From: Dehalococcoidia bacterium
GTDB taxonomy: Bacteria; Chloroflexota; Dehalococcoidia; Lucifugimonadales; UBA3495
Assembly (NCBI GenBank): GCA_965222895.1
Contig: CBDCVB010000002.1
Coordinates: forward strand, 1,159,678 to 1,223,677
DNA: 64,000 bases
Direction: 5' to 3'
Shown: positions 3,505-45,095 of the stretch, piece after piece
Layout: each line of letters opens with the position of its first letter
Numbering within the stretch: the stretch's first letter is position 1
Notes under the pieces: generated by a model
The model's database searches: none
Told to the model about the DNA's origin: nothing
The model's input: the letters and a program-made list of their open reading frames with translations, nothing else
Made by a program: the position numbers and the translations under genes

Positions 3505-6343
3505 GGTCCAACTGCAACCAGCGGGCGGCCTGCTGTCCCACCGTGGCCAGGCTTGAGCGCTCGAACGTACAGGTTGGCAGCGCGTTCAGGAAACGGTCAC
3601 CGTAGTTGGCGGTTTGAATGCGCCGGTCCAGAATCACCACTGCGCCACGGTCCATCTTGTTGCGGATGAGCCGTCCGAAACCCTGACGGAACCGCAGGAC
3701 GGCGGTGGGAACCTGAAAGTCGTTGAAGGGGTTGTTGCACAGATTGCTCCGTGCCTTGACGATGGGATCGCTGGGCACCGGGAAGGGCAGCCGGCAGAGC
3801 AGCAGGCCCCGCAGGATGCCGGGTTCCATGTCCACGCCTTCCCAGAAACTGGCGGTGCCCAACAGCACTGACCCGGGTTCGGCCCGCAGCCGGTCGGTCA
3901 GTTGTCGCGGTGTGCCGTCAATTCCCTGAGCCAACAGCGGGATACCCTCAGCCCGCAGCAATCCGCGAATCTGGTACGAAGTTTCCCGCAACGCCGCATG
4001 AGACGTAAACAAAGCCATCACGTGCCCGTCCAGCGCTTTTGCCATGTTCACGACCACCTGCGCCGTGCCGCGGTTATGGTCGGCAGACCGGCGTGGGTCG
4101 GGCAGGTCTTCGGGCACCATGAGCAGGGTGTTGCGTTCGTAGTTGAACGGGCTGTCCACCAGCAGTTCGTCGCTGTCGTTGGGGAATCCGACGCGCTGGC
4201 GCAGGAAATCGAAACTGGAATCCGCCGCCAGAGTGGCGCTGGTCAACACGACGGATTCCTTCTGCGTGAACAACCGGTCGCTCAATATTGGCCCCACCGC
4301 CAGCGGCGTGGAATGCAGCATGACGTTGCGGCGGACGATGTCCAGCCACTGAATCTGCTCCTGGTCGTAGCGGCCGAATACCGAAGCCAGGGAATCGGAA
4401 ATCTGGACAATGGCATCAATGCTGCTGACCAGTTCTGACGTGGCCGATTCGTCGGGCTTTTTGAAGACGTCCTGCGATGCCAGCCGTTCCAGGTCCTGCA
4501 ATGATTTGACGCACTCGTTGACGAACGCCGCCGCCGACTCCCATTCAATCGCCACCGTGCCCCATTCACGGGACTGACGCACCTTATCATCGAGGGTCAA
4601 CGGTTCCCGGTCGTTGTCCGACTGCCCGATAGCACCCCGATACAGCGCGGTAATAGCGTCCCAGAGCCGTTCCCAGGCCTGAGCTGCCGCATTGCTGGCT
4701 GCGGAGGCGTTGGATACCGCATCGCTGGCCCGGGACGCGTTTGGGTCGCCCTGGAGCTGGTGCGCCGCCGCCGTGAGTCGTCCGATAATCCGGTACACGC
4801 CTTCCAGTTCACGCGGCAACGCGTCCTGGGGAATCTCAAAACCCAATTGCCGGCTGGCCTCTTCTTCCAAATGGTGAGCTTCGTCGATAACCAACCGTTG
4901 GTAGTCCTGCAAGACGGTGCCGCCCACGGCGAGGTCAGCCAGCAGCAGGGCGTGGTTAATCACCAGGATGTGGGCGGATTCGGCGTGCTGGCGAGCCTGC
5001 CGCAGGAAACACGGCCCACTGCCCCGGAAGGCAGGGCAAACCTCGCCGGTGTCGGCGCAGATGCGCGACCAGGCCCGAAAATCGCTGGCATTCAGGTTCA
5101 GGTTAGTGCGGTCGCCGCTGACGGTATCGTCCAGCCACACGGCGGTTTTGCCGATAACCCGGGCTTCGTCTTCGCTCAACGTGTCCGACACACCCAGGTT
5201 GTTCCAGCGGTGCAGGCATACGTAGTTGGAGCGGCCCTTCAGTTGCGCGGCCTTGACCACACCGGGATGCAGGATGCCGGCGTCTTCCAGAATGCCGATG
5301 ACGGCCGGAATGTCCTTTTCCATCAGTTGTTCTTGCAGGTTGATGGTGTTGGTCGACACGACGACCCGCTGCCCGTGAGATGCCGCGTACAGCACCGCCG
5401 GCAGCAGGTAGGCGATGCTTTTGCCGATGCCGGTGCCACCCTCCACGATTAGCTTGCGTCCCTGATAAATGGCGCGGGTAACGGCTTTCAGCATCTCGGC
5501 CTGCTGAGGGCGGTCCTCGAAGCCGGGGAACGCCTGGGCGAATATGCCGTGGGGCGCCAGCAGCTCTTCCACCTGTTGCTCGGTGAGTTCACGCCGGATG
5601 GCTACGCCCAGCTGCTCCCCCGCACCATCAGACAGCCGGTTGGACAAGCTCTCCAGGTTCAACCCGTTCAGGCCAACGGCGCCGGCCTGTTCCGAATGCC
5701 CGATGGCCGAGTTTGCGCCCACCGCGTGGGGAATCAACCCTTCCAGCAAGTCCGCCACGGCAGCGTCGGCGGTGCGTGCCGCCCGCGCGATGAACGCGAC
5801 CTTGGCTGCCGGGTATCCGCTGCCGACTTCCAGCAGCCGGTGAAACACGGCCGCGGTAACCTCGGCGTCGGCGCTGGCCCGGTGCGCCTGGTCGTGGGTA
5901 AGGCCCAGATATTGCGCCAGCGCGGACAGGTTGTATTCGGGCGCGTCGGGCAGGAAAATCGACGCCAGATCCCAGGTGTTATAGGTCTTGTTGCTCAGTT
6001 CCAGCCGGTGCGATTTCAGGAAATCAATATCAAATTTGACGTTGTGCCCGATGATTGGCAGGTCACCGACGAACTCGGCGACCTGGCCGGCGATTTGGGC
6101 AAAGGATGGGGCCCGTTCCAGATGAGACGGGTTGATGGAAGTGAGTTGCTGGATGAATTGCGGAATCTTGCGGCCTGGGTTAACGAAGGTTTGGTAACGG
6201 CCCAGCACCTCACTGCCGCGAAACTTGACGGCGCCCACCTCGATGATGGTGTCGGCATGGGGATTCAATCCGGTGGTTTCCAGGTCTATGGAAACGAACA
6301 CCTGCTGGAAGGGGTCTGGTTGTCGAAAACCTGCTTGTGTCAT
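3488..6343 (-). CDS. dinG: DinG-family ATP-dependent helicase fused to an N-terminal DnaQ-like 3'-5' exonuclease
   Basis: Exo motif FVSIDLETTGLNP, helicase Walker A EGGTGIGKS, DEAH box (VIDEAHHL) and a Cys cluster in the Fe-S region. Confidence 0.85.
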   Translation of the reverse strand: MTQAGFRQPDPFQQVFVSIDLETTGLNPHADTIIEVGAVKFRGSEVLGRYQTFVNPGRKIPQFIQQLTSINPSHLERAPSFAQIAGQVAEFVGDLPIIGHNVKFDIDFLKSHRLELSNKTYNTWDLASIFLPDAPEYNLSALAQYLGLTHDQAHRASADAEVTAAVFHRLLEVGSGYPAAKVAFIARAARTADAAVADLLEGLIPHAVGANSAIGHSEQAGAVGLNGLNLESLSNRLSDGAGEQLGVAIRRELTEQQVEELLAPHGIFAQAFPGFEDRPQQAEMLKAVTRAIYQGRKLIVEGGTGIGKSIAYLLPAVLYAASHGQRVVVSTNTINLQEQLMEKDIPAVIGILEDAGILHPGVVKAAQLKGRSNYVCLHRWNNLGVSDTLSEDEARVIGKTAVWLDDTVSGDRTNLNLNASDFRAWSRICADTGEVCPAFRGSGPCFLRQARQHAESAHILVINHALLLADLAVGGTVLQDYQRLVIDEAHHLEEEASRQLGFEIPQDALPRELEGVYRIIGRLTAAAHQLQGDPNASRASDAVSNASAASNAAAQAWERLWDAITALYRGAIGQSDNDREPLTLDDKVRQSREWGTVAIEWESAAAFVNECVKSLQDLERLASQDVFKKPDESATSELVSSIDAIVQISDSLASVFGRYDQEQIQWLDIVRRNVMLHSTPLAVGPILSDRLFTQKESVVLTSATLAADSSFDFLRQRVGFPNDSDELLVDSPFNYERNTLLMVPEDLPDPRRSADHNRGTAQVVVNMAKALDGHVMALFTSHAALRETSYQIRGLLRAEGIPLLAQGIDGTPRQLTDRLRAEPGSVLLGTASFWEGVDMEPGILRGLLLCRLPFPVPSDPIVKARSNLCNNPFNDFQVPTAVLRFRQGFGRLIRNKMDRGAVVILDRRIQTANYGDRFLNALPTCTFERSSLATVGQQAARWLQLDRAARR

Positions 6344-6446
6344 CTGTCCTTACCGATGCCCGCTGGAGTGTTCGCCGGAATCTTCGGTGGTGTGAGCGCT
6401 CACGGCGCGCCGGGCCACCGCCGCATCCGCCTTTGGTGATTTCGCC

Positions 6447-7154
6447 CTAACTCCGGGCGCGCAAATTGTAGGGTCGCGGGTCGCCCTGCCGCAATCCTGC
6501 AACGGGATGGAAGTCGCCCCGGTGCAGGGCAGTCAGGAACTGGGCCTCGTCAAATATCTCATCGGGGAATTCGGTTACGAATCGGCCCAACCCGTGGGTG
6601 CTATGGGCGTCGCTGCCGCCGGTTACCGGCAGGTTCAGCCGATGCGCCACCTCTGCGGCGAACCGGTTTTCGTCGTCGGATGTTCCGCCATTGGCAATCT
6701 CAACGGCATCGGCCAGCTGAAACACCCGGTGCTTCATCGCTTCCTCTGCTTCGGTCGGGATCGGTTCGGCTGGGTCTGGGTACAGGTACGGGCGGGTGCG
6801 GTGGTGCTGGCCCAGCACTCCCCGGAAGGGATGCGCCGACACCACGAACCCGCCGGCGCTGTGGGCGGCTTTGCTCAACTCTTCGGCGTGGTGAAATCCG
6901 CTCTGGTAGCGGTCAACGCCAAACGCCAGGATGTGGCCCATGTCGGTGTCGGCTTCCATCGCCCGGATTAGCACCACGTTGTGCCGGGCGGCGAAAGCGG
7001 CAAATTCGTGGCGATCCCACGGCCCGGTGTGCTCCGTAATACAAAGGCCGCGCAGGCCAAGCCGCTCTGCCTCCAATATGAGGTCGTCCGGCGAAAGGCT
7101 CGAATCGGCGCTTCCCTTGGTCGTGTGTATGTGCAGGTCAAAAAGGCGGGCCAT
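6447..7154 (-). CDS. PHP-domain metal-dependent phosphoesterase
   Basis: N-terminal DLHIHTTKGSADS and C-terminal GGSDAHS His/Asp motifs typical of the PHP fold. Confidence 0.7.
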   Translation of the reverse strand: MARLFDLHIHTTKGSADSSLSPDDLILEAERLGLRGLCITEHTGPWDRHEFAAFAARHNVVLIRAMEADTDMGHILAFGVDRYQSGFHHAEELSKAAHSAGGFVVSAHPFRGVLGQHHRTRPYLYPDPAEPIPTEAEEAMKHRVFQLADAVEIANGGTSDDENRFAAEVAHRLNLPVTGGSDAHSTHGLGRFVTEFPDEIFDEAQFLTALHRGDFHPVAGLRQGDPRPYNLRARS

Positions 7155-7211
7155 AGACTCTACCAGTCTAGTCGCACCACCCCCAAAGCGTCAACGACGT
7201 AACGTCACTAG

Positions 7212-8052
7212 GGGGTGTCGTCAAAATGGCGGCAGGGTGGTAAATTACTGGAAATGGGGAGAGTGTGGGAGGTGGGGGTATGACGGCAGCGCACCGGCGC
7301 CACGATATGACCGATGACGTTTGGGAGCGGTTGAGGCCGCATTTGCCCGGGGGAGCGGGCAAGAGAGGCCGACCGGCCCAGGACAACCGGCGGTTTATCG
7401 ACGCCGTGTGCTGGATACTGCGCACCGGCGCGCCTTGGCGCGATTTGCCCCCGGACTACGGAGACTGGAAGAACACCCACCGCCGCTGCTGCCGCTGGCG
7501 GGACCGGGGCGTGTGGGCCGGACTGTTGGAGGCAGTGATTGATGACCCTGATTTCGAGTGGCTGATGATAGACGCCAGCTATATCAAGGCCCATCCCCAC
7601 AGCGCCGGCGCCCAGGGCGGAAATCAGTCCATTGCCCGCACCAAAGGGGGCTGAACAGCAAGCTGCACCGGGCGGTGGACGCCCACGGAATGCCGGTAAG
7701 GCTGGCGGTGACCGAGGGTACGGTTGCCGACTGCTCCCAGGCGTTGCCCCTGATTGAGGGCATAGCAGCGGAGTGCCTGCTGGCGGACAAAGCCGATGAC
7801 ACCAATGAAATCATAGCCACCGTCCGGGAATTGGGAATGGACCCGGTGATACCGCCCAAAAGCAACCGGAGAGAAAAACGGGACTATGACCGGGCGCTGT
7901 ACCAGCTGCGGCGCCTGGTGGAGAACGGATTCCTGGAATTCAAGCAGTGGCGCGGAGTGGCAACCCGGTATGCCAAAAAGACGGCGTCATACTTGGCGGC
8001 CTGCCAACTCCGCGCAGTGATGATCTGGAGCAAACTCTTTTGACGACACCCC
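7212..8052 (+). mobile_element. IS5-family insertion sequence (two-ORF frameshift type), copy 1
   Basis: Terminal inverted repeats ggggtgtcgtcaaaa / ttttgacgacacccc, flanked by CTAG on both sides (7208-7211, 8053-8056). 841 bp, the same length as copies 2 and 3. Confidence 0.9.
7265..8043 (+). CDS. IS5-family transposase OrfAB, probable -1 frameshift at aaaggggg (7643-7650)
   Basis: OrfA (7265-7654) and OrfB (7558-8043) overlap. Fusing them at A-AAG-GGG gives the contiguous sequence ...IARTKGGLNSKLH... The C-terminus has the RYDK-like motif (ATRYAKK) of DDE IS5 transposases. Confidence 0.85.
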
Positions 8053-8056
8053 CTAG

Positions 8057-9520
8057 TACTACAACGACGGGTTTAGGATGGCGGCTCCATCCTGCCTTCA
8101 CGGCGGGCGGAGCGGCGTCTCTGGTGGGAGCGGCGCGCCCGCTCGTTGCGTAGCTGCGTATCCTCCAGCCACCGCAGCAACTCCTCTGGCCCGAACCGTT
8201 CCCGGGGCAGCATCTCCCGAACCACCCGGCACACTTGGGGACGGGTGATCCGAGGCATCTTTTTCCCCCCAAGCCTGCTGCAGGCCCAGCAGGAAAGCTC
8301 CACCCAGCAGGCACATGGCTATGTGGTGATGCCAGCCAGCCCAACTGCGGGTCTCGTATTCGTCCAGGCCCACGTCGCCCTTCTCCGTCTCGAACTCCGT
8401 TTCAATGGGCCACCTGGAACCGCCCACGTAGGCCAGGGTCTCCAGGGGAGTATCCTCGGCAGCGTTGGACAGGTAGTAGCGGGGTTCGCTGCCGTCCAGG
8501 TTCCGGCGGTAGACGGCCCATGCCTCCTGGCCCGGCTTGCCCTTTCGGGTTACCCGCACCCGCTGGGCGCAGAACATATAGCTCCGCGGCCCCTGGCTTC
8601 CCTGGGCCACCGTTATCTCCCGCCAGGCCTCATCCGGCAACTGGTCACTGCGTTGCTCCATGGTACGACGCTGCCCGTCCCTGAGCCTGGGCTTGCGGGG
8701 GCGCCCGGACCCCTGAGCCCCCGGACTGGTCCAGGCCGACTCCCACGCAGGCTCCAGGGGCCAGACCGGAGTGCTGCCCGGAACGTCCAGCACGTAGCGC
8801 ATCCCCAGGGCCGCCAGGGACTCCCGAAAGGACGGCGACATCCCGAAGGCGTCGTCCCCGGCCACCCATCCGGCCTTGAGGTGGCCCAGCTCCAGGGCCC
8901 GCTCCAGCAGTTCCAGGGCCAACTCCGTCTTCGACCGGTAGCTCCGCCGCTCCTCGGGCACCGCCGCCGCCGCACAGCGGCCCTGATCCGAGGTCCAACT
9001 CTCCGGCAGATACAGCCCTTTGTCCACCAATGCCCGTCCCAGCGGGCTGACGTAGGCCAGGAACATCCCACCCTGGCAGTTGGCCACCTTGCCCAGCCGG
9101 CCGCAGTACTGCCGGGCTACCCCCACGGACTTCCTCCCCTGCTTGGGAAAGTCGCTGCCGTCCAACACCCACACCGCCTCGGGGTGCCCCAGCCTGGGGG
9201 CCAGGTATTCCTGCAGCCGCCCGATCACTGTCGCATCGGACCACCGGGCCTCGGTCAGAAAACGCTGCATCGCCCGGGCCGAGATGCCCACCGATTCCGA
9301 CAGGTTCTCGGCGTTGCGCCGCTCCCCAGCCTGCACCAGCAGCCCCTGAAGATAGTTTCGGCTGTGCTCCCGCCACTGCTTGCGGCCGAAGGAGGCCGCA
9401 AAGAAGGCGTGAAATTCCTGAAAGCACTCGTAGACCCGCTTGAAGCTCGCCGCATCCATCACCCAAACCACCCACTATCATCTTGACAACTATCCTACCA
9501 AACAACCCGTCGTTGTAGTA
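8057..9520 (-). mobile_element. IS701-family insertion sequence, copy 1
   Basis: Perfect 15-bp inverted repeats tactacaacgacggg / cccgtcgttgtagta, flanked by CTAG (8053-8056, 9521-9524). 1464 bp, identical length in three copies. Confidence 0.9.
8098..9471 (-). CDS. IS701-family DDE transposase (457 aa)
   Basis: N-terminal FxxFHxxF...RxxxxxYLxGLL signature of IS701-like transposases. The translated protein is identical in all three copies. Confidence 0.85.
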   Translation of the reverse strand: MVWVMDAASFKRVYECFQEFHAFFAASFGRKQWREHSRNYLQGLLVQAGERRNAENLSESVGISARAMQRFLTEARWSDATVIGRLQEYLAPRLGHPEAVWVLDGSDFPKQGRKSVGVARQYCGRLGKVANCQGGMFLAYVSPLGRALVDKGLYLPESWTSDQGRCAAAAVPEERRSYRSKTELALELLERALELGHLKAGWVAGDDAFGMSPSFRESLAALGMRYVLDVPGSTPVWPLEPAWESAWTSPGAQGSGRPRKPRLRDGQRRTMEQRSDQLPDEAWREITVAQGSQGPRSYMFCAQRVRVTRKGKPGQEAWAVYRRNLDGSEPRYYLSNAAEDTPLETLAYVGGSRWPIETEFETEKGDVGLDEYETRSWAGWHHHIAMCLLGGAFLLGLQQAWGEKDASDHPSPSVPGGSGDAAPGTVRARGVAAVAGGYAATQRAGAPLPPETPLRPP

Positions 9521-9523
9521 CTA

Positions 9524-10975
9524 GTAACTGTTCAGACTTGGTGGGGGAATTGGTTCAAAGAGGTTCGGGGATGGCTGGCGCGAGGGGTTGTGGTTATGTC
9601 ATATAACGGGTATGGATTCGGAAATCGATCTGTCCACTGCTGACCGCGATGTGCTCATCGCCATCGTCATACGGCAGGAGGCCATCATAGCCCGGCAGCA
9701 GGCGATCATCGAGCGCCTGGAGCAACGGATTGCTCGGCCGGAAGGGCGGGCCAAACCCAGTGGCGCCCGGGGGATGCCCGGCCTCAAACCCGAAGCCAGC
9801 CGGAAACCGGCCCAGCCCAAAGCGCCACGCCAGCGGCGGCCCCACGGCTTTGCCCGCCGTCGCATGACGCCCACCCGTCGGGTGGAGCATGTGGTGGACC
9901 ACTGCCCCGACTGCGGAACCCAGTTGTCCGGTGGCTGGACCCAGCGCACCCGGGAGGTCATCGAGTTGCCCCAGGTTCCGGCGGAAGTTACCGAGCACGT
10001 CTACATCGCCAGGGATTGTCCGGCTTGCCGCCGCCGCTGCGTGCCCCCGGCGCAACTGGACGGCGTGGTGATGGGCCAGCAGCGCCTGGGTATCAACCTG
10101 GTCAGTCTGATTGCCACGCTCCGAGAGGAGGCCCGACTGCCCATCGCCGGCATCCAGCGGTATCTGCACACCGTCCATGGGCTGAGCCTCAGCGTGGGAG
10201 CCATCATGGCGGCGGTGCATCGCACTGCGCAAAAGGCCCAGTCCGCCGTGGACCGGATTCTGGCCCAAGTCCGCGCCAGCCCAGTGGTCCATGCCGACGA
10301 GACCGGCTGGCGTGAGGATGGACACAACGGCTACGTGTGGACTTTCAGCACACCATCGGCGCGCTACTTCCTGCGGCGGGGTCGCAACAAGGAAGTGGTG
10401 GATGAAGCTCTGGGCGACACCTTCTCCGGCGTCCTGGTCAGCGATTTCTACGCCGCCTACCACCATTACGAGGGCCCCAAACAGCGCTGCTGGGTCCATC
10501 TGCTGCGGGACATCCACGACCTGCGAACCCTCTACCCCGATGACGCGCCACTGGCGCAGTGGGCCGACGCCGTCCACGAGATTTACGACCGGGCCAAAGC
10601 CAGCGCCCATCCCCAGACCAAGCGGCGACGCGCCGCCCAACTGGCCCTGGAACGGCAGCTGCTGGCCATTTGCCAACCCTTCCTTCACGACCCTTCGGCA
10701 ACCCAGGCCAAGCTATGCCGACGCATCGAGCGCCATATCAAAGAGCTCTTCGTCTTCGTGGCCGAACCGGAGGCGCCATCGGACAACAACGCCGCCGAAC
10801 GCAGCCTGCGCCATCTGGTCGTCAGTCGCAAGATCAGCGGCGGCACCCGGTCGGAACGGGGCAGCAGCAGCAAGATGACCCTGGCTTCCCTCTTCGGCAC
10901 CTGGCGCGCCCAAGGACTGAATCCCCTCGCCGCCTGCCGACAACTGCTCTCTTCCCCGCAACTCTGAACAGTTAC
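9524..10975 (+). mobile_element. IS66-family insertion sequence (single-ORF type), copy 1, no target-site duplication
   Basis: Ends gtaactgttcagac... / ...tctgaacagttac match copy 2. The 8 bp on the left (tagtacta) differ from the 8 bp on the right (accaaaac). Confidence 0.8.
9588..10967 (+). CDS. IS66-family transposase (TnpC-like, zinc-finger plus DDE)
   Basis: CPDCG...CPACRRRC zinc-ribbon region, DETGW motif and C-terminal AERSLRHLVVSRK..GG typical of IS66 transposases. No tnpA or tnpB ORFs. Confidence 0.85.
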   Translation: MWLCHITGMDSEIDLSTADRDVLIAIVIRQEAIIARQQAIIERLEQRIARPEGRAKPSGARGMPGLKPEASRKPAQPKAPRQRRPHGFARRRMTPTRRVEHVVDHCPDCGTQLSGGWTQRTREVIELPQVPAEVTEHVYIARDCPACRRRCVPPAQLDGVVMGQQRLGINLVSLIATLREEARLPIAGIQRYLHTVHGLSLSVGAIMAAVHRTAQKAQSAVDRILAQVRASPVVHADETGWREDGHNGYVWTFSTPSARYFLRRGRNKEVVDEALGDTFSGVLVSDFYAAYHHYEGPKQRCWVHLLRDIHDLRTLYPDDAPLAQWADAVHEIYDRAKASAHPQTKRRRAAQLALERQLLAICQPFLHDPSATQAKLCRRIERHIKELFVFVAEPEAPSDNNAAERSLRHLVVSRKISGGTRSERGSSSKMTLASLFGTWRAQGLNPLAACRQLLSSPQL

Positions 10976-10983
10976 ACCAAAAC

Positions 10984-11210: not shown

Positions 11211-12456
11211 GTACTGGTTCAAATCAGTATTGTAAGTTATATTAGTGAAAGGCCTACAAATGCTACGCTGACTGCAAAATAGAGTAGTGTGGAGGTGTGG
11301 CAAACATGGCCCTGGAGCAATACGCAGTACGGTTGACGCCGGAGGAGCGGGAGCAACTGAGCCGACTGATACGTAGCGGCAAAAGTTCGGCTCGCATCGT
11401 CGCCCGGGCGCGCATTCTACTTAAAGTTGCTGAGGGATGGAACGCACCTCAGGTGGCGGCCGCTTTGGACGTGTCCAAGGGTACGGTGTACCGGGCCAAA
11501 AGGCGGTACGCCGAGGAGGGATTGGCGGGAGTCATCCAGGACCGGGTCCAGGCCAACCGGTATCGCAAGCTGGACGACAAGGGCGAGGCCCACCTGATTG
11601 CCTTGGCGTGCAGCCCAGCGCCCGCTGGCCACGACCACTGGACCTTACAGCTGCTGGCCGACCGAGTGGTGGAGTTGGGGTTGGTGGAGTCGTTATCGTA
11701 CGAGACGGTGCGGTTGAGGCTGAAAAAAACGTCCGCCAGCCGTGGCGGAAGCAGCAGTGGTGCATCCCGAAAGTAGGCGGCGAATTCGTGGCGGCGATGG
11801 AGGACATGCTGGACTGGTATGCTGAGCCCTACGACCCCGACCGGCCGGTGGTCTGCTTTGATGAGACCTCGACCCAGTTGCTGGCCGACACCAAACCGCC
11901 CATCCCAGTGCAACCGGGACAACCGCGGCGTCAGGATTACGAGTATCGTCGCGCCGGTACGCGCAACATCTTCCTGACCTGCGAACCCCTGGCGGGCTGG
12001 CGACACGTGGCGATTACCGAGCGCCGCACTATGGAGGACTGCGCCCACCGGATGCGCTGGCTGGTGGATGAGGCTTACCCCGATGCCCCGGTGGTGCGGG
12101 TGGTTCTGGACAATTTGAACACGCACCGCATGGCTTCCCTCTATGAGACCTTCCCCGCCGCCGAAGCCCGGCGCATCGTGAAGCGGCTGGAGTTTCACCA
12201 CACACCCAAGCACGCCAGTTGGCTCAATCCTGTCCTGAGCTTGCCGAAGGGATGGCGGAGATCGAGTTCAGCGTGTTGACCCGGGCCTGTCTCCAGGGGC
12301 GTAATCCCGACGAGACTGCCCTACAGCTAGCCATCAACGCCTATGAGGCCGAGCGCAATGCGGCGGGGGCCACCATCAACTGGCGGTTCAACACCCAGGA
12401 CGCCCGAGCCAAATTGCATCGCCTATATCCCTTCAATTCCAAGATTGATTGAGTAC
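11211..12456 (+). mobile_element. IS630-family insertion sequence, copy 1 (inactivated)
   Basis: Ends gtactggttcaaatca / tgattgattgagtac, flanked by TA (11209-11210, 12457-12458). Confidence 0.8.
11297..12452 (+). pseudogene. IS630-family transposase, -1 frameshift site at A7 (11723-11729), disrupted by a 23-nt insertion at 12229-12251
   Basis: HTH part 11297-11776 and DDE part 11437 onward (LDNLNTH...HASWLN). Copy 2 reads HGSWLNMAEIE, whereas this copy has 23 extra nt between WLN and MAEIE, which shifts the frame. Confidence 0.8.
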
Positions 12457-12458
12457 TA

Positions 12459-13666
12459 GTACCGTTTCAATTTAATTCTATTGGATATACATGTTTGAGC
12501 TTACTGCGAGCGTCTTGGGTGGAGAACCGCCAGTCTATGATGGCGGCGGCCTCGTTGCGCTCGCGTTCGAGCGCCGCGACCTCCCGTCTCAGCAACGCTG
12601 CATCGCCGATACGGCGGTCCAGACACGGTCTGCTGAATACGCTCAACTCGATCTCAGCCATGTTCAGCCAGCTGCCATGCGTGGGAGTGTAATGAAACTC
12701 CAGCCGTGGGGCGATGCGCCGGGCTTCGGATGGCTCAAACGCTTCGTAGAGCGAGCCCAACTTGTGGGTATTGAGATTGTCCAGGACCAGCCTGATCACC
12801 GCTGCGTCAGGGTATGCGCTGTCCACCAGCCACTTCATCTGATGCGCGAAGTCCACGGCAGTGCGGCGCCCGGTCACTTCGACATGTCTCCAGCCGCCCT
12901 TCGGCTCGCAGAACAGGAACAAGTTCCGGGTCCCGTTTCGCTGGTACTCAGTGTCATAGCGTTCCACCCGTCCGGGCTTGGCCTTGATGGGCGGCCTCAC
13001 CTCCCCGGTCAATTGCCTGGCGGTCTCGTCGAAACACACTACCGGACGCTCCGGGTTGTACTCTTCGTGGTACAAGTCCAGCAGGTCCTCCATCCGCGCC
13101 ACGAACTCCCCGCTCACCTTGGGGATACACCACTCTTTCTTCTTCCAGGGCTTGGGTTCATTTTTTTGAGTATCTGGCGCACCGTCTCCAGGGAGATGCT
13201 CTCAGCAAACTCCAACTCCACCACCTTGCCGGCCAGCAACTGGAGCGTCCAGTGCGTGTGTCCTGCGGGCGCTGCGCTGCACGCGAAGGCGATCAGGTGG
13301 GCTTCCTGCTTGCCGCCCAGCTTGCGCTCCCGGCCCGGCCGCGGTCTGTCGTTAATGGCGGCCTCAAGTCCTTCCTCCACGTACCGCTTCCGCGCTCTGG
13401 CAACAGTAGCGGCGTTGACCAATAGCACATCGGCTATCTCACGGTCTCGAAGTCCTTCGTCCGCTTTGAGCAGCGCGAGCGCCCGCTTGACGGTGCGGAC
13501 CGGCGCCTTGCCCCGGTGGGAAACCTCATTGAGGCAGGTCCGTTCGGACCCGGTCAGTTTGATTTTATACTTGATGGCAGCCATGGCTGGGCACTTCCTC
13601 ACCGAAAGATCATACCCAAGTATGACTGCCTTATCATATTCTTACAAATCTATCTGGAACCGGTAC
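12459..13666 (-). mobile_element. IS630-family insertion sequence, copy 2 (diverged from copy 1)
   Basis: Ends gtaccgtttcaattt / ggaaccggtac, flanked by TA. Separated from copy 1 only by the shared TA dinucleotide. Confidence 0.8.
12467..13602 (-). CDS. IS630-family transposase, HTH (13114-13602) plus DDE (12467-13117) joined by a probable -1 frameshift at A7 (T7 on + strand, 13161-13167)
   Basis: Two overlapping ORFs with the same architecture as copy 1. DDE motifs FDET, LDNLNTH and GSWLNMAEIE are intact. Confidence 0.8.
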
Positions 13667-13966
13667 TAGGCTGGTATCCAAGTTTTTCGCGGCACGGCGG
13701 ATGGGCAAAGGCAGCATTATAGTTCGGGGCTCTAGCACAGACACGCACATCGTGTTGCCCAGTGATTTATCAGAAGAAGCCTGCCGCCAACTGGGGCAGA
13801 TGGGCGTGGACCGTCTCCGGGGGACGTTCTGGGTATGGGACCCGGCAAAGAATAAATGGGTCGGAAATTAATCCCAGCGGTTGAGAAGCGGCAATTGCAC
13901 CCCCACGCCCAGGTGCACAAATCCAGTTCGCCGCAAGGCTCGCATACCGTTAAGGAGACGGGAAAG

Positions 13967-14473
13967 ATGGTAACTAGACATAGAGCATTCTACAGCCTCC
14001 ACTACGATCGTGACGCTTGGCGCGCCAGCATGGTCCGCCAAATGGGCGTCATCGCCGGCAATCCACCGGTGATCTACAACGATTGGGAACAGGTCAAACG
14101 TGGGGGCGACCGTGCAATAAGGCAGTGGATCAACAGCCAAATGGGAAACCGTTCATGTGTGGTTGTTCTGATCGGAACTCACACCTCCGGTCGTAAATGG
14201 ATCAACTACGAAATCAAGCGTGCCTGGAAGGAAGGCAAGGGTTTGCTCGGGGTTTACATCCACAATCTACGAGACGCGAGGCAGCAGAAATCCGCCAAGG
14301 GAGCGAATCCCTATTACAACGTCATCGTGGATGGTCATCGGCTTTCCAGGGCCGTCCCTGCCTACGAACCCGTTGATAATTGGAGGACCAGTGCATACCG
14401 TTGCATTGAAGGAAATCTCGCCTCATGGGTCGCTCAAGCCGTCGCCGACCGGGCCGGCAGGTTCAAGGTTTGA
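13967..14473 (+). CDS. TIR-like domain protein (DUF1863 / ThsB-like), copy 1
   Basis: AFYSLHYDRDAWRASMVRQMG and VVVLIGTHTSGRKWINYEIKRAW match the DUF1863 TIR-like pattern. AGGAG lies 8 nt upstream of the ATG at 13967. The listed ORF start at 13856 is probably too early. Confidence 0.7.
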   Translation: MVTRHRAFYSLHYDRDAWRASMVRQMGVIAGNPPVIYNDWEQVKRGGDRAIRQWINSQMGNRSCVVVLIGTHTSGRKWINYEIKRAWKEGKGLLGVYIHNLRDARQQKSAKGANPYYNVIVDGHRLSRAVPAYEPVDNWRTSAYRCIEGNLASWVAQAVADRAGRFKV

Positions 14474-14478
14474 GTTCC

Positions 14479-14948
14479 ATGCCTGATAGCAAGCTGCTTG
14501 ATCCCGAAGAATCGAGGATACCCACGCACCTGACCATCGTGCAGGGTGTCATCAATCGGATGGCTGATAACAGCCGTTGGTGCAAAGTTTGGTGCGTGAC
14601 TCTGGTTTCGGCAGCGTTAGTCCTCGCCGCTAGGACCGACAATCCGCACCACCCCCTAGTCGCTCTGGCGCCGGTAGTCCTGTTTTTGATACTTGATGCC
14701 TACTACCTGGGTTTGGAACGATCCTATCGATGGTCCTACAACGGGTTTGTGAAACACCTGCATCAAGGAAAACTGCAGGCGGAACAACTTTATCGCGTTA
14801 CCAAGTGCGGTTCAGATGCGTGTTATTTTTTATCAGTTTCGGATCGCCCTCAATCCGGCTTTTCTATGTTTCCATTGTTGCCACAGCGCTTGCCGCCTGG
14901 CTGTCGCTGTGGCTGATGGCCACGCCCACGTGCCCAGGAGCCCGGTGA
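14479..14948 (+). CDS. Small multi-pass membrane protein, reading frame apparently broken at T6 run 14826-14831
   Basis: Two hydrophobic helices (WCVTLVSAALVLAA, LVALAPVVLFLILDAYYL) in frame 14425. A third (LFYVSIVATALAAWLSLWLMA) is in the frame of ORF 14730-14948. That frame ends in a TGATG overlap with the next gene start. Confidence 0.5.
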
Positions 14949-15518
14949 TGACCGCAAAAAATCCCGCAACACAAGGTCTTCATCAGCTTCCATGAACAGG
15001 GTACGAAGTACCGGGACCGATTCGTCAAGATGATGAGCGATTCGATTGTGGACAAGTCGGTGCATGACGATGACATCGACGACCTCAATCTGCGAGTCGC
15101 CACGATTCTCCAGAAAATTCGCGACAACTTCATCGCTGATGCGACGGTGCCGGTGGTCCTGATCGGTCGAAGCACCTGGCAGCGCAAGCATGTGGATTGG
15201 GAAATCGGTTCCAGCATTCGTAAGACGAAGAAGAACTCTATATGTGGGCTGCTGGGCATTTTGCTCCCCAATCACCACAATTTTCAAAGCGACGTATATA
15301 AACCTCGACTAATTCCACCTCGTCTCGCGGACAATGCCGGAGAGTTGAACCCCTATGCTGAAATTGACCGGTGGTCAGGTAGCGTCCACGAGGTGAACCT
15401 TATCCGAAGATTCATACACCGGGCATTCCAGCGCAGGTATGGCACGCCGCCCGACAATAGCCGTCCTCAGTTTGGCCGCAACAGAAGCGGGAGTTGCAGC
15501 TCCGGATGGAAAGACTGA
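14948..15518 (+). CDS. TIR-like domain protein (DUF1863 / ThsB-like), copy 2, frame broken at A6 run 14956-14961
   Basis: KVFISFHEQGTKYRDRF is encoded at 14973 onward with no in-frame start. The ATG at 14948 joins this frame if the A-run is one base shorter. VVLIGRSTWQRKHVDWEI motif is present. Confidence 0.6.
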
Positions 15519-15593
15519 CGGGTTAGCCAGTTGTCGTCCGGATTGAACAATCAAGTTGCGCTCCGGTAGGCGGGAAGTTCGGTCGCTATTCAT

Positions 15594-17047
15594 CTCGACT
15601 TTGTACAAAATCTAGATAAATTATAAGAACAGGGTAAGCTCGACCAAATCACCACAAGAGGTCGAGTATGCCTACCCTGCCCGCAGTCATAGTAACCCTG
15701 CTGCTGCCCTTTGAGCACCTGTTTGACCCCAGGACCTGGCGCAAAGCCCAACTCCTGGCCATGGGAGCGATCCTGTCTCCCGGCAAACGCACCGTGTCCT
15801 CCGCCCTCAACATCCTGGGGATTGGGCAGCACGGCGACTTCGCCGTCTATCACCACGTGCTCAACCGCGCCCGATGGTCGCCACTGCAACTGAGCCGGGC
15901 GCTGTTGCTGCTGGTGGCCGGGCGCCTTGGTTCGTCCACCGAGCCGTTGGTGTTCGGCATTGACGAGACGGTGGAGCGACGCTGGGGCCGGAAGATTGCG
16001 GCCAAGGGGTGGTATCGGGATCCGGTGCGGTCCAAGGACGACCAGGTGGTGATGACCCCCGGATTGCAATGGGTGAGCCTGATGTTGCTGACGCGTATCG
16101 GGTGGGCGGGTCGATACTGGGCGCTGCCGTTTTTGACCGCGCTGGTGGTGTCGGCCCGCTACGACCGGCGCAAAGGCCGCCGGCACAAGACGGTAACCGA
16201 CTACGCCCAGCAGATGCTGGTCTGCCTGCGCCGTTGGCTGCCGGAGAGGGACCTGGTGGTGGTGGCCGATGGCGGCTACGCCAAGCGCGAGTTCCTGCGG
16301 CATTGCCAGAGTATGTCAAAGCCGATTGTCGTCGTCACCAAACTGCGCAAGGACGCGTCCCTGTACCAGCCCGCGCCAGCGCGGCGGCCCGGCCAGATCG
16401 GGCGGCCCCGGGTGGTCGGCGCGCGACTGCCCAGTCCCACGGCGGTGCTGGACGATCCCGCTACACAATGGATTCCCTACCGCGCCACCGGTTCCGACGG
16501 CAGTACCGCCATGGTCGAGCTCGCTTCGGGCGTAGCGCTGTGGTACCACGGCGGGCCGCCGCGCCTTCCCATACGTTGGGTCGTCATCAGATACCTGGCG
16601 GAGCGCCGCGGGCCCTATGCTTTACTATGCACCGACACCGAGGCGGAACCCCTGCGGATACTGCAGTGGTATCTGCTGCGGTGGCAGGTCGAGGTGACCT
16701 TTGAGGAGCTGCGGGCTCACCTGGGCATGGAAACCCAGCGCCAGTGGTCGGAACGAGCCATCGCCCGAACCACCCCCGCGCTCTTTGGCCTGTTCAGCGT
16801 GGTGACGCTGGCCGCGGATATCCTGATCGAACAGCGTGGCGCCATGGCGCCGCGCACCGCGGCGTGGTATGACAAAACCAGCCCTTCCTTCGCCGACGCC
16901 ATCGCCATGGTCAGACGACACCTCTGGGTGCAGCAGGGAACTTTTATGCCGTCCGAGCGCGAGCACGAATCGATAAAAGTCCCGCGCCTCTTGTACCACA
17001 GGATGCTCGACACGCTAGCCTATGCCGCTTGATTGTACAAAGCCGAG
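15594..17047 (+). mobile_element. IS4/IS701-superfamily insertion sequence with a 7-bp TSD
   Basis: Inverted repeats ctcgactttgtacaa / ttgtacaaagccgag. Direct repeat tattcat at 15587-15593 and 17048-17054. Confidence 0.8.
15668..17032 (+). CDS. DDE transposase (IS4/IS701-like, 454 aa)
   Basis: FGIDETV, VVADGGYA and C-terminal YLLRWQVEVTFEELRAHLG motifs typical of IS4/IS701-type DDE transposases. Confidence 0.75.
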   Translation: MPTLPAVIVTLLLPFEHLFDPRTWRKAQLLAMGAILSPGKRTVSSALNILGIGQHGDFAVYHHVLNRARWSPLQLSRALLLLVAGRLGSSTEPLVFGIDETVERRWGRKIAAKGWYRDPVRSKDDQVVMTPGLQWVSLMLLTRIGWAGRYWALPFLTALVVSARYDRRKGRRHKTVTDYAQQMLVCLRRWLPERDLVVVADGGYAKREFLRHCQSMSKPIVVVTKLRKDASLYQPAPARRPGQIGRPRVVGARLPSPTAVLDDPATQWIPYRATGSDGSTAMVELASGVALWYHGGPPRLPIRWVVIRYLAERRGPYALLCTDTEAEPLRILQWYLLRWQVEVTFEELRAHLGMETQRQWSERAIARTTPALFGLFSVVTLAADILIEQRGAMAPRTAAWYDKTSPSFADAIAMVRRHLWVQQGTFMPSEREHESIKVPRLLYHRMLDTLAYAA

Positions 17048-17379
17048 TATTCATTGGAGTGCCGTTAACCGGATACCGCACGGCGCAAGTGGGTACTTCC
17101 GCTGGATAGGCAGGGACATTGATAACTGGAAAAACCGTAACGGGCCAACTCCCCCACCGGCCAGCAGGAAGTTGCGCTCCTGCTGGCGACTCGGATGGTG
17201 TCGTTGGCTCTGGGAATATTGAGACAGAGTCCGCTGGCCCAAAGTACCCGGAACTTCACGTGGTCGCACCTTTCTACGCCATGGCCGTCGCGACCGTAAT
17301 TCCCACCTGTCGGATGATCACCCAGCCGGTACTCCGACTACCCCTGAGCAGTATAATTGCCACGGAATTCCCCAAGTGT

Positions 17380-17813
17380 AAGGTCTCATCAGATTTCACG
17401 AACGGGATATCGCGTACAAGGACAGGCTCGTGACAATGATGCAGGTCTACATGCTGGATGAGTCGGCAGATACCGGAGATATCGTTCGCTGTAACCTTCA
17501 CCTGGATGAGGTCAGGCGCCGGATCCGCGATGTTTACATCGCCGACGCCACCGTTACGGTGGTGCTGATCGGCTTCTGCACCTGGTAGCGGAAACACGTG
17601 GATTGGGAGATCAGTTCCAGTCTGAGCGACACGCGCAACAATCGCAGGCGCGGCCTCCTGGGAATTCGCCTGCCGATTCACACGGATTTCCGCGATCCCA
17701 ACTACACCCCGCAGATGATGCCGCCCCGGCTGCCGACCAATTGCGTTGGAAATGCCCCTTACGCCAGGATTTATCGCTGGTCGGGGAGCCCGAACTGGAT
17801 GCGCTGTGATTAA
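17380..17813 (+). pseudogene. TIR-like (DUF1863 / ThsB-like) copy 3, decayed
   Basis: Paralogous to copy 2 (HERDIAYKDRLVTMM...VVLIGFCTW*RKHVDWEISSSL...RIYRWSGS). There is a 1-nt deletion in the KV(F)ISFH region and an in-frame TAG at the conserved Gln (TWQRK becomes TW*RK). Confidence 0.75.
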
Positions 17814-17888
17814 CGACAATTAGTCCTGCCGGTAGCGACGACTATTTTTGCCGGTCGTGATGGGTAATCATTCGGTACGGAGGTACCG

Positions 17889-19020
17889 TTGATTACAGAC
17901 CGACAAGTCAGGCTATTGAGGCAGAAACGTATGGAAGGAAAAACACAGGAAACGGCGGCCGCCAAGGCTGGGATGAGCGTGCGTTCAGCGCGGAAATGGC
18001 AGAGTGGCCCGTTGCCGTCGGCGACGAAACCGGAGCATCGATGGCGCACCCGGCCCGACCCATTCGACGGGGTGTGGGAGGATGAGATTGAGCCGCTGCT
18101 ACGGAATGATCCGACGGGCAAGCTGAAGGCGACGACAATTATCGACTGGCTGGCCGGTCAGCACCCCGGGCGGTTCAGCGCGTCCCAGTTGCGCACCCTG
18201 CAACGAAGATTACAGGATTGGCGGGCGCTGCATGGTCCGGATCAGGAGGTGTACTTCCCCCAGGTGCATCCGCCGGGACGGGAGGCCCAGTTCGACTTCA
18301 CCCACTGCGGGGAACTCAAGGTGACCATCGCTGGACAGTCCTACCGGCATCTGCTGTTCCAGTTGATCCTCAGCCACTCGGGGTGGCGCTACGCCGAGGT
18401 CGCCGCCAGCGAGACCTTCCTGGCGTTGCAGCAGGGATTGCAGGCCGCCCTCTGGACCCTGGGCGGCGTTCCAGAGGTGGTGCGCAGCGACAATACCTCG
18501 GCTGCCACCCACGAATTGCGCAGCAGCCGCGGCCGGGCGCTGAACGACAATTACGCCGCCCTGCTGGACCACTACGGTCTCCACTCCACCCGCATCAATC
18601 GCGGCCAGAGCCATGAAAACGGCGTCGCCGAGCACGCCCACTACCGCTTGAAGGACGCCATGGACCAGGCCCTCATCCTGCAGGGCAGCCGCGATTTCGA
18701 CACCACCGACGACTACGCCGACTTTGTCCAGGAGATGGTGGGGGAGACGCAATCGCCTGGTAGAAGGGAAGCTGGAGCAGGAGATGCCTTGCCTACGCTC
18801 CCTGCCGCCAGCTCCGGTGCCGGAATACGTCAACTACCAAGCCAGGGTGCGCAGGTGGACCACCATCCCGTAGTAAAAAAGCGGGCAGCCGGTCGGACCT
18901 ACACCGTGGCCCTCCCGTCTCATCGGCAGGGAGGTTCAGATCCGGCTGTACGCCGACTGGGTGGAAGTGTACTTCAAGGGCCACCTGGTGGAATGCAAAG
19001 ATCCCGAATGGAAGACCGCA
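17889..19020 (+). pseudogene. IS21-family IstA transposase, frameshifted and 3'-truncated, no istB
   Basis: N-terminal HTH and DDE region (FDFTH..., VRSDNTSA, HENGVAEH). After about 18740 the similarity continues only across shifted frames and stops (...RWTTIP**). It ends at the convergent K+ channel gene. Confidence 0.75.
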
Positions 19021-19024
19021 ACTG

Positions 19025-19900
19025 TCAGGATCCCAACTCACCCCCGCAGTGAGGGCAAACCCCAAGAGCCACAGCGTCCTTGCCCTCCTCGTTGGCCTCC
19101 ACCATCGCAGCGCTGAGGATGCCGGCGGGCAGGGCAAACAGACCGATGCCCAGCACCGCGATCACCGCGGCGAGCAACCGGCCGATACCGGTAACGGGCA
19201 CCGTGTCCCCGTAACCCACCGTCGTCAGCGTCACCGCGCTCCACCACATCGCGGCCGGAATACTGGAGAAAACCTCGGGCTGAGCCCGAGCCTCAGCGAA
19301 GTACATCAAGGCCGCCGCGAGGACCAGCACCACCAGCAAACCCACCACCGCCGTCAGCAGCTGGCCCGATTTGGAGCGTATCGCCATCCCCAAGCGCCGT
19401 CCTCCCGGCAAGTAACGGGCCAACTTCGCGGACCGGGTCAACAGCCTGATGGCCAGCAGGAAGGACAGACTCAACTCGTCGCCTGCAGTAAACAGGATCA
19501 CCACCGCCACCAGCGAAGGTAACAGCACCCCACCATCAATCAACGCCGCCGGCGAGACCATGAAGCGGCCCCGCCGCCGCCATACACCACCCGCGCCAAA
19601 CCCCTCCGCCGCCGCCCAGAACCGTACCGCGTACTCGAAAACGAACACGCCCAACGCGCAGTACTCGGACAAACGGAACCAAAAGGAGTATCCTTCCCTC
19701 AAACTCTCCACCGTCCAGAGAATCAGGGAAAAGCTATTGATCAGGATGACCCCCACCAGCAGCAACTCCAGTAAATACGTGTGCCGGTCACCCCGCTCTT
19801 CGAAGAGCCGGTAGGCCCGCAACCGCAGGCCCACCCGGGGACTCACCGCCGCAACACCCTCTTGTGAAGCGCTCATACCAAACTTGCCTCCTGTCGACAC
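19025..19900 (-). CDS. Potassium channel (ion transport protein) with C-terminal CxxC motif
   Basis: Selectivity filter TTVGYGD, multiple TM helices and C-terminal CPHCGGEL. Confidence 0.8.
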   Translation of the reverse strand: MSTGGKFGMSASQEGVAAVSPRVGLRLRAYRLFEERGDRHTYLLELLLVGVILINSFSLILWTVESLREGYSFWFRLSEYCALGVFVFEYAVRFWAAAEGFGAGGVWRRRGRFMVSPAALIDGGVLLPSLVAVVILFTAGDELSLSFLLAIRLLTRSAKLARYLPGGRRLGMAIRSKSGQLLTAVVGLLVVLVLAAALMYFAEARAQPEVFSSIPAAMWWSAVTLTTVGYGDTVPVTGIGRLLAAVIAVLGIGLFALPAGILSAAMVEANEEGKDAVALGVCPHCGGELGS

Positions 19901-34887: not shown

Positions 34888-35810
34888 CTATTGGGTGCTC
34901 TTGGTCTGGGGTTGTTTTTCTGTCTCGAAAACCATTATCCCAGATGCACCGGAGCACTTTCTTACCTATTCAACCCGCCGCAACACTCATCTTGTCGGTG
35001 GATTGGGGCTTATAGGAGTGTCTTTTCAACTCACGTCGCAGGGTGGTCCGCAGATCGAAATCTGCGAGGACCACATTGTTCGATGAGTTAGGGCAGCAAG
35101 CGGTTCGACCTGATTGAACTGGGACCGCAGCTACGTGGGGTGATGAACAGGTATTCTCCTGCGATTCTAACGCTTCGTTCTAAACTTACCCTTCCTCGCC
35201 GGCGAGCCTCATCCAGAGGCCTTGAACTGAGCGCCCCGCAGTTGATAACCATCGATCCGCCGGTCCCGGCCTTGCTCGTCGAGTCCACCCTCCGTAAGTA
35301 CAGCCCCGCGGGCGTCGTCTCCGACTTCGTACGACGCCACCAAGCATGGTGGTGTCTCTCCGGGAACCCGGCGCCAGTGAGTTGGCAAGGCACCTATCGG
35401 CAAGGCTAAATCCACTTACCAACTGGATAATTCGTTATCCGCCAGAGTTTTTAAGTCCTTCCTGCCGTTGCCCGGAATCCAGGTTGTCCCATGATCCCAA
35501 ATGTGACGCCACCATAGGCGTAGCCAGCACGGCCAAACCGAGGACAACCTGCTCCGTGATTCCCTGAGGATGCCGCGTTGCGGGCAGCGGGTACCACCCT
35601 CACTCCGCAGGGTGTTCATGCGGCCAGCACGTCGGGCCGGCTCCCGATTTTCCCGGCCGTTTGCATGGCCCCTTACTCAATCCGCCCTTGGCAGGACGCA
35701 AGTACAGCAACAACGTCCGGGAAGACCATACTGTGCACCACAATACAACCAAACGGGGCTCCGACCCACAACACTTGAATCTGAACCTCGATGAGCGTTC
35801 GCTGTTCTAG

Positions 35811-37274: not shown

Positions 37275-37278
37275 CTAG

Positions 37279-38119
37279 GGGGTGTCGTCAAAAGAGTTTG
37301 CTCCAGATCATCACTGCGCGGAGTTGGCAGGCCGCCAAGTATGACGCCGTCTTTTTGGCATACCGGGTTGCCACTCCGCGCCACTGCTTGAACTCCAGGA
37401 ATCCGTTCTCCACCAGGCGCCGCAGCTGGTACAGCGCCCGGTCATAGTCCCGTTTTTCTCTCCGGTTGCTTTTGGGCGGTATCACCGGGTCCATTCCCAA
37501 TTCCCGGACGGTGGCTATGATTTCATTGGTGTCATCGGCTTTGTCCGCCAGCAGGCACTCCGCTGCTATGCCCTCAATCAGGGGCAACGCCTGGGAGCAG
37601 TCGGCAACCGTACCCGCGGTCACCGCCAGCCTTACCGGCATTCCGTGGGCGTCCACCGCCCGGTGCAGCTTGCTGTTCAGCCCCCTTTGGTGCGGGCAAT
37701 GGACTGATTTCCGCCCTGGGCGCCGGCGCTGTGGGGATGGGCCTTGATATAGCTGGCGTCTATCATCAGCCACTCGAAATCAGGGTCATCAATCACTGCC
37801 TCCAACAGTCCGGCCCACACGCCCCGGTCCCGCCAGCGGCAGCAGCGGCGGTGGGTGTTCTTCCAGTCTCCGTAGTCTGGGGGCAAATCGCGCCAAGGCG
37901 CGCCGGTGCGCAGTATCCAGCACACGGCGTCGATAAACCGCCGGTTGTCCTGGGCCGGTCGGCCTCTCTTCCCTGCTCCTCCGGGCAAATGCGGCCTCAA
38001 CCGCTCCCAAACGTCATCGGTCATATCGTGGCGCCGGTGCGCTGCCGTCATACCCCCACCTCCCACACTCTCCCCATTTCCAGTAATTTACCACCCTGCC
38101 GCCATTTTGACGACACCCC
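37279..38119 (-). mobile_element. IS5-family insertion sequence, copy 2
   Basis: Same inverted repeats as copy 1. CTAG at 37275-37278 and 38120-38123. Confidence 0.9.
37288..38066 (-). CDS. IS5-family transposase OrfAB (frameshift type)
   Basis: OrfA 37677-38066 and OrfB 37288-37773, with one or two substitutions relative to copy 1. Confidence 0.85.
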
Positions 38120-38123
38120 CTAG

Positions 38124-42778: not shown

Positions 42779-42782
42779 CTAG

Positions 42783-44246: not shown

Positions 44247-44250
44247 CTAG

Positions 44251-45091: not shown

Positions 45092-45095
45092 CTAG

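Follow-up and report, generated by a model that had tools for sequence, protein, structure and literature searches.

A 2025 preprint that scanned defence islands for TIR-based systems reported the verification of seven new Thoeris types (Yirmiya et al., December 2025, bioRxiv 10.64898/2025.12.03.692087). Type V Thoeris, as defined there, consists of ThsB and ThsF. ThsF has three membrane-spanning helices and carries the label DUF2270, and in the AlphaFold 3 model it forms a homo-heptamer that resembles a channel and has basic pockets. The type V system of Bacillus thuringiensis DAR 81934 provided phage defence, and its ThsB produced 3' cyclic ADP-ribose (3'cADPR) upon infection. Added 3'cADPR was toxic to cells carrying this system, and the Tad1 sponge reduced defence (bioRxiv 10.64898/2025.12.03.692087). 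Separately, a bioinformatic candidate system designated PDC-M50 was included in PADLOC-DB v2.0.0 in 2023; no paper naming PDC-M50 was found in a literature search. The locus described here is situated in a 64,000-nucleotide stretch of DNA, hereafter called the window, from a Dehalococcoidia bacterium (assembly GCA_965222895.1, contig CBDCVB010000002.1, positions 1,159,678 to 1,223,677 of the forward strand). An initial annotation, made from the letters of the window alone, had described three TIR-like genes of the ThsB/DUF1863 kind together with a gene for a small multi-transmembrane (TM) protein, and had proposed that a TIR-made signal triggers a minimal membrane effector without ThsA. The block is very probably a degenerating type V Thoeris cassette with the order thsB-thsF-thsB, accompanied by an older thsB pseudogene. 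Its features are listed below, with lengths in amino acids (aa).

13967..14473, + strand: thsB-1, an intact ThsB-type TIR gene of 168 aa, in which the motif WINYEI holds the catalytic Glu.
14479..14948, + strand: thsF homologue (PDC-M50A family), a gene for a predicted three-TM effector, 156 aa when repaired.
14826..14831, + strand: thsF frameshift site, a T6 run at which the frame switches.
14948..15518, + strand: thsB-2, a second ThsB-type TIR gene, 189 aa when repaired, in which the motif HVDWEI holds the catalytic Glu.
14956..14961, + strand: thsB-2 frameshift site, an A6 run.
About 17367..17813, + strand: thsB-3, a TIR2-type pseudogene in a single frame with the stops TAA at 17379-17381 and TAG at 17586-17588.

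The three TIR-like genes and the small membrane protein gene were all present where the initial annotation had placed them. The open reading frame (ORF) map and the sequence agree on a gap of 5 nucleotides (nt) between the end of thsB-1 and the start of thsF, and the stop of thsF and the start of thsB-2 overlap as TGATG. The products of thsB-1, thsB-2, and thsB-3 are referred to as TIR1, TIR2, and TIR3.

The membrane protein links the block to type V. The reading frame of thsF changes at the T6 run at 14826-14831, and the new frame continues to 14948. The repaired 156-aa product aligns with 156-aa homologues through the C-terminal helix, whereas the unrepaired product, as written in the window, lacks the third TM helix (TM3). 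Pfam and NCBIfam scans of the protein, either frameshifted or repaired, gave no match, and PF10028 (DUF2270) did not match it at E-values up to 10. All four PADLOC PDC-M50A hidden Markov models (HMMs) matched, the best at 7e-28. The structure predicted with AlphaFold 2 (AF2; predicted local distance difference test score 84.5) contained helices at residues 13-53, 58-95, and 124-148, and hydrophobic stretches could be read from the sequence at about 36-52, 59-78, and 125-146. By this prediction the repaired protein has three membrane-spanning helices, as the type V effector does. Comparison of the AF2 monomer with the PDB using Foldseek returned nothing significant, the best E-value being 0.35, for generic helical bundles. 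A homologue search with the protein found 149 relatives, mostly of about 146 aa; a profile search recovered 4721 of 1.84 billion cluster representatives at E ≤ 1e-3. Strong conservation was seen in the alignment over the N-terminal amphipathic helix and the first TM segment (H17, Q22, R27, N31, K36, W38), in an LDAYYLxLER motif past TM2 (D73, Y76, E80), and in the C-terminal TM helix. The conserved charged residues are R27, K36, and E80.

The bona fide ThsF was reached by way of a Terribacillus plasmid and then a locus (L089) in which the gene upstream of the 141-aa protein P0271 encodes a product identical at 251/251 positions to the published ThsB of B. thuringiensis DAR 81934. Since it is encoded by the next gene after this ThsB, P0271 was taken to be the ThsF of that strain. 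P0271 aligned over its full length with the window family in hhalign (99.0%, E 7.6e-18), and BLASTP against the repaired window protein gave 30% identity (E 7e-16). For the Terribacillus plasmid orthologue, a close homologue of B. thuringiensis ThsF, the alignment with the window family reached 99.6% (E 5e-24), and this protein and other plasmid homologues matched the PDC-M50A HMMs at 1e-48 to 1e-54. All four of these HMMs are thus shared by the window protein and the Bacillus-type and plasmid homologues. On the plasmids of B. cereus CTMA_1571 and of Priestia a TIR matching B. thuringiensis ThsB was present, with no small ORF alongside it. Because P0271 aligns full-length with its family, the membrane gene of the window can be assigned as a thsF homologue, and its product is, as judged by these alignments, a full-length homologue of an experimentally verified ThsF. 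The common matches to the PDC-M50A HMMs, taken with the hhalign result for the verified ThsF, likewise equate PDC-M50 with type V Thoeris, and in the window adjoining genes match the A and B HMMs of PDC-M50. The architecture, which the initial annotation had implied to be new, is no longer novel: it was catalogued as PADLOC candidate PDC-M50 in 2023 and named type V Thoeris in December 2025.

The TIR proteins point in the same direction. TIR1 matched PF08937 (ThsB_TIR) at 3e-24, the PADLOC ThsB model PDLC00433 at 1e-61, and PDC-M50B at 2e-56. It is 51-54% identical to the TIRs listed as 'DUF2270 - Type V' in cluster 2661146773 (Table S1, Yirmiya et al.), and 40% identical to a verified type XI TIR. 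The first 12 codons of thsB-2 are out of frame with the remainder of the gene; removal of one A from the A6 run restored the N-terminal KVFISFH strand and a 189-aa protein. Repaired in this manner, TIR2 matched PF08937 at 4e-12 and PDC-M50B at 1e-10, with 38% identity to a verified type VI ThsB that produces 2'cADPR, and 46% identity to a TIR listed under type VIII. The initial annotation would, by its own terms, have been refuted by TIR-like proteins lacking the catalytic Glu. Checked by alignment, this residue is conserved in all three TIRs of the window, where it lines up with E85 of B. cereus ThsB (BcThsB) and forms the invariant column E83 of the TIR alignment, within NYEI in TIR1 and DWEI in TIR2 and TIR3.

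Gene order was compared across relatives of thsF. When one genome per species was scanned, a relative was encoded in 313 genomes, and the locus counts given here refer to the best 80. Almost all of these loci came from metagenome-assembled genomes (MAGs) of Dehalococcoidia/Chloroflexota, with several record titles indicating lineages associated with sponges. A ThsB-type TIR gene directly adjoins thsF on the same strand in 74 of the 80 loci, in the following arrangements.

TIR1-type, thsF, TIR2-type (the window arrangement): 16 loci of 80.
Third ThsB clade, thsF, TIR2-type: 13 loci of 80.
thsF, TIR2-type: 29 loci of 80.
Third ThsB clade, thsF: 12 loci of 80.
Other arrangements with one adjacent TIR: 4 loci of 80.
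Orphan thsF with no adjacent TIR: 6 loci of 80 (L001, L004, L015, L064, L065, L075).

The membrane protein gene thus keeps company with DUF1863/ThsB genes in other genomes, as the initial annotation had expected, and the TIR-TM-TIR triad itself recurs. The orphan thsF homologues may be lone effectors or may have partners encoded elsewhere. In 38 of the 80 loci (L001-L080, positions about -2300 to +5500 relative to thsF) the cassette is embedded in a type I restriction-modification (R-M) operon and has the same orientation as the operon, with hsdM upstream and hsdS/hsdR downstream. AbiE (AbiEi/AbiEii) and PIN genes were also frequent neighbours. Embedding in type I R-M operons is unmentioned in the main text of the type V preprint (bioRxiv 10.64898/2025.12.03.692087). 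Type I R-M genes were also looked for in the window, and none was present. No ThsA-like gene recurred as a neighbour across the 80 loci, where the recurrent neighbours are the type I R-M genes, and the claim that the cassette has no ThsA-type effector stood. Nor was a ThsA or Macro-TM effector seen in the flanks of the cassette in the window, which are occupied by insertion sequence (IS) elements, although no dedicated search for SIR2, SLOG, or Macro domains was made over all 64 kb. The conserved linkage and the genomic context fit a defence function.

In the mechanism proposed for an intact copy, phage infection would activate one of the two ThsB TIR enzymes encoded beside thsF, and the activated TIR would turn nicotinamide adenine dinucleotide (NAD+) into a signal of the cyclic ADP-ribose type. 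This signal would bind the small three-helix membrane protein ThsF, and a channel-like homo-oligomeric assembly of ThsF would then damage the membrane and stop the infected cell (abortive infection). The homology to a verified ThsF and the linkage to ThsB genes support the earlier proposal of a TIR signal acting on a minimal membrane effector without ThsA. The identity of the signal (3'cADPR in B. thuringiensis), the oligomerisation of ThsF, and the membrane damage are proposed by analogy with the published B. thuringiensis system.

Two sets of close relatives were informative about the state of the window copy. On L081, a metagenomic contig of 10 kb, the triad is intact (168, 156, and 189 aa), and both the 5-nt gap and the stop/start overlap of the window are preserved. 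The contig is 89% identical to window positions 13775-15592, and the only gaps within coding sequence are the two indels. The second set, L095, L096, and L097 (European Nucleotide Archive ERZ6111260, ERZ25071132, and ERZ23495149), comes from three samples with independent assemblies and is 96% identical to window positions 14703-15594. At the thsF run the window reads T6 followed by A, L095-L097 read T7, and L081 reads T6 followed by AA. At the thsB-2 run the window reads A6 (AAAAAA), L081 reads A5, and L095-L097 read AACAA. Intact 189-aa orthologues of thsB-2 are present both in L081 and in L095-L097. In the latter, thsF is 5'-truncated (P0007, 113 aa), with fragments of an integrase and of IS66 next to it, and the gene for TIR1 is absent. 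Small ORFs upstream of the cassette (window 13701-13871; L081 2391-2930) showed no protein-level conservation, and a promoter and terminator scan gave background levels only. L081 is itself a defence island. At 604-2059, 6056-7344, and 7435-9506 it carries SMODS and SLATT_4, an additional ThsB_TIR gene with, after it, a gene for a 199-aa protein that Pfam does not match (possibly another TIR-effector pair), and a TIR_2 gene beside an LD_cluster2 gene.

The third paralogue had been described as decayed. It is real, as TIR3 matched PF08937 at 3e-12 when the stops were read through and shares 51% amino acid identity with TIR2, but its damage consists of two nonsense codons in a single frame rather than frameshifts. 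The C-terminus is cut off just short of an IS21-like element. In L095-L097 the gene carries the same two stops plus a further stop at the catalytic Glu. Since relatives carry the same two stops, thsB-3 was dead already in the common ancestor, and it is an old pseudogene and not a recent duplicate. No relic of thsF was found upstream of thsB-3 by tblastn. For the other three genes, the ratio of nonsynonymous to synonymous substitution rates (dN/dS) relative to L081 was 0.20-0.37, which indicates purifying selection until recently and makes any inactivation a recent event. Because the thsF product would lack TM3, and the thsB-2 product its start and first β-strand, the cassette as written in the window is most likely inactive. 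Loss of the cassette in this lineage is proceeding by several independent routes.

Several observations weigh against parts of this interpretation. The B. thuringiensis type V ThsB belongs to an unrelated TIR clade, and neither TIR1 nor TIR2 resembles it; for this reason the 3'cADPR signal cannot simply be transferred to the window subfamily. The system of Bacillus sp. 1NLA3E is of type V and defends, yet added 3'cADPR did not poison its cells (bioRxiv 10.64898/2025.12.03.692087). The assignment of the subfamily and its DUF1863-type ThsB partners to type V is one of homology. PF10028, the source of the DUF2270 label, was matched below threshold only, by 14 of 112 family members with a best E-value of 9e-4. 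Pfam gave no match for the Terribacillus homologue either, and the Bacillus relatives, P0271 included, have no precomputed Pfam domain. In the preprint the TIR clusters were annotated by cluster-level hhsearch against pfam_v32 (bioRxiv 10.64898/2025.12.03.692087), and we infer the same origin for the effector's DUF2270 label, which does not reflect a match above the gathering score. Finally, the apparent inactivity depends on two 1-nt indels at homopolymer runs, a typical error of long-read assemblies. The suggestion in the initial annotation that the locus may currently be inactive is accordingly plausible, given two frameshifts and a pseudogene, and at the same time unproven, as the indels may be homopolymer errors. 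If both were such errors, the cassette would be intact and active, and thsB-3 would be its only true pseudogene. That the indels are single bases at runs of at least six (T7 to T6; A5 to A6) speaks for this, as does the length of the source contig, 2.4 Mb, which suggests a long-read assembly. The dN/dS values leave no room for long neutral decay, and thsB-1 and all of the conserved ThsF residues are intact. On the other hand, eleven further homopolymer runs of at least six bases, all in long ORFs of the window, are free of frameshifts, a comparison that is suggestive only, being biased by the choice of ORFs as intact. Relative to the closest relatives the A-run requires a C-to-A substitution as well (AACAA to AAAAAA), and this lineage degrades the cassette by other means, with thsF 5'-truncated in three samples, nonsense codons in thsB-3, and an IS 68 bp past thsB-2. 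Insofar as close relatives show independent decay and IS activity surrounds the locus, real pseudogenisation of the window copy is somewhat more likely than sequencing error, and an intact, active cassette is a serious possibility that we nonetheless hold to be less likely than not.

Other explanations concern the role of the membrane protein. It might be an anchor, a regulator, or an immunity factor, with the TIRs themselves killing the cell by depleting NAD+, as some bacterial TIRs are NAD+-depleting effectors; the monomer model shows no domain recognisable as ligand-binding and has no similar structure in the PDB. The toxicity of 3'cADPR alone in the verified type V system, and the loss of defence upon its sequestration by a sponge, place ThsF downstream of the signal. 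TIR1- and TIR2-type ThsBs moreover pair with many effectors in other Thoeris types, which is typical of signal producers, and oligomers of ThsF are predicted to have basic ligand pockets, with which the conservation of R27 and K36 agrees. We therefore regard this explanation as very unlikely. The initial annotation had itself suggested a likeness to SLATT proteins, implying two TM helices, and in type VII Thoeris the partners of TIRs are indeed SLATT effectors. By profile comparison one of 112 family members gave a weak match to SLATT_6 (E 0.0077), whereas the window protein had no SLATT match at E-values up to 10, is predicted by the AF2 model to have three TM helices and not two, and shows strong full-length homology to ThsF. 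A SLATT identity was rejected on these grounds, and with it a two-TM, type VII-like Thoeris is effectively refuted. Within the preferred reading of a type V cassette, the ThsF subfamily of the window, which is common in Dehalococcoidia/Chloroflexota MAGs and typically has two different ThsB clades on its flanks, could answer a signal other than 3'cADPR, or two signals, and form a distinct Thoeris type, possibly coupled to restriction. This idea, suggested by the fact that a relative of the TIR2 clade makes 2'cADPR and that the TIR1 clade also serves type XI, is put forward as an unlikely but not negligible variant.

The mobile elements in and around the cassette were as follows.

11297..13602: a divergent, oppositely oriented pair of IS630-like elements, the left boundary of the cassette, with matches to PF13358 (DDE_3) and HTH_32/HTH_29.
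15587..15593: left copy of the 7-bp target-site duplication TATTCAT.
15594..17047, + strand: insertion sequence, IS701/IS4-like, with a DDE_5 transposase at 15668-17032 (PF13546, 7e-33).
17048..17054: right copy of the 7-bp target-site duplication TATTCAT.
17889..19052, + strand: IS21-like istA remnant, the right boundary of the block, with a sub-threshold match to PF00665 (rve).

The block had been described as lying between IS elements and as less GC-rich than the core genes. Both statements were borne out, with the IS630-like pair on the left, the IS21-like remnant on the right, and the DDE_5 element inside, and with a GC content of 0.55-0.56 over 14-16 kb compared to about 0.62-0.65 in most of the window. 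The IS at 15594-17047 sits 68 bp past the thsB-2 stop and has the terminal inverted repeats CTCG(A/G)CTTTGTACAA. Its insertion with a clean duplication of TATTCAT, as originally noted, is corroborated by the empty site in L095-L097, which run on from 15594 directly into window positions 17049-17105 and 17203-17824. The empty site of L095 holds a single copy of the heptamer, CATTCAT. L095-L097 lack the 97-bp segment that separates the IS from thsB-3 in the window at 17106-17202. This segment contains the motif AAGTTGCGCTCC, which recurs at 15553, just downstream of thsB-2, and it may represent a short element that is mobile or was duplicated. The IS630-like pair forms a 378-nt inverted repeat (71%), and the match of the IS21-like istA to PF00665 scored 29.9 bits against a cut-off of 32.6 bits (E 7e-07). 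Both IS630-like copies have an A7 run at the junction of the HTH (helix-turn-helix) and DDE ORFs, at 11723-11729 and 13161-13167 (T7 on the + strand in the reverse copy), which suggests programmed -1 frameshifting and not decay.

The remainder of the window is also rich in IS elements. A 1.47-kb DDE_5 IS occurs in three 100%-identical copies (8053-9524, 35807-37278, 42777-44250), each joined to a 0.87-kb repeat with 99.3% identity between copies (7207-8073, 37258-38124, 44230-45095), and two IS66-like copies (9524-10981, 45948-47405) are 93% identical. This richness points to recent transposition bursts. A channel gene (Ion_trans/Ion_trans_2) lies 1.2 kb past thsB-3 at 19025-19900 on the - strand. 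Type X Thoeris effectors are ion channels. The proximity is probably a coincidence, because the gene has core-genome composition and the opposite orientation and thsB-3 does not belong to the type X TIR clade. Over 19-32 kb the GC skew is -0.13 to -0.31 and the AT skew up to +0.36; the sign of the GC skew changes, and it reaches +0.19 to +0.34 over 52-60 kb, which is unusually strong and independent of gene orientation. The cumulative GC skew has its minimum near 41 kb, within an IS-rich stretch, and no dnaA gene was identified. The switch around 41 kb could mark a replication origin region.

These results tie an unnamed PADLOC candidate, PDC-M50, to verified type V Thoeris, and they allow three 'hypothetical' genes of this genome to be annotated as a defence cassette eroded by IS activity. 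A reader with access to the sequence alone had arrived at the principle behind a type of Thoeris whose experimental verification dates only from late 2025. The window copy is of little experimental value, and the intact cassette of L081 is more useful. Two leads follow: the dual-ThsB architecture brings together TIR clades that differ in the signals known from their characterised relatives, and the cassette is frequently embedded in type I R-M operons in Chloroflexota MAGs.

Among known systems, type V Thoeris shares with the window a three-TM effector of about 140-156 aa, an adjoining ThsB, the lack of ThsA, and a defence-island setting, and TIR1-type ThsBs (cluster 2661146773) are among its listed partners. 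It differs in that the window effector is 30% identical to the tested B. thuringiensis ThsF and is flanked by two distinct DUF1863-type ThsBs instead of the 251-aa B. thuringiensis TIR, and in that the window copy is frameshifted and lies beside an IS insertion. The resemblance to PADLOC PDC-M50 extends to all three genes of the cassette, the TM protein matching PDC-M50A and both TIR1 and TIR2 matching PDC-M50B. Type I and II Thoeris have in common with the window the ThsB TIR genes for sensing and signal production, often several per locus, and a signal-activated abortive infection, but the window effector has no separate soluble sensor domain, and SIR2, SLOG, or Macro domains were seen neither in the block nor among its conserved neighbours. 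Type VII Thoeris and the SLATT effectors of CBASS (cyclic oligonucleotide-based anti-phage signalling systems) likewise use small membrane-spanning effectors thought to oligomerise on a nucleotide signal. These have no detectable sequence relationship to the window protein, which is predicted to have three helices where they have two.

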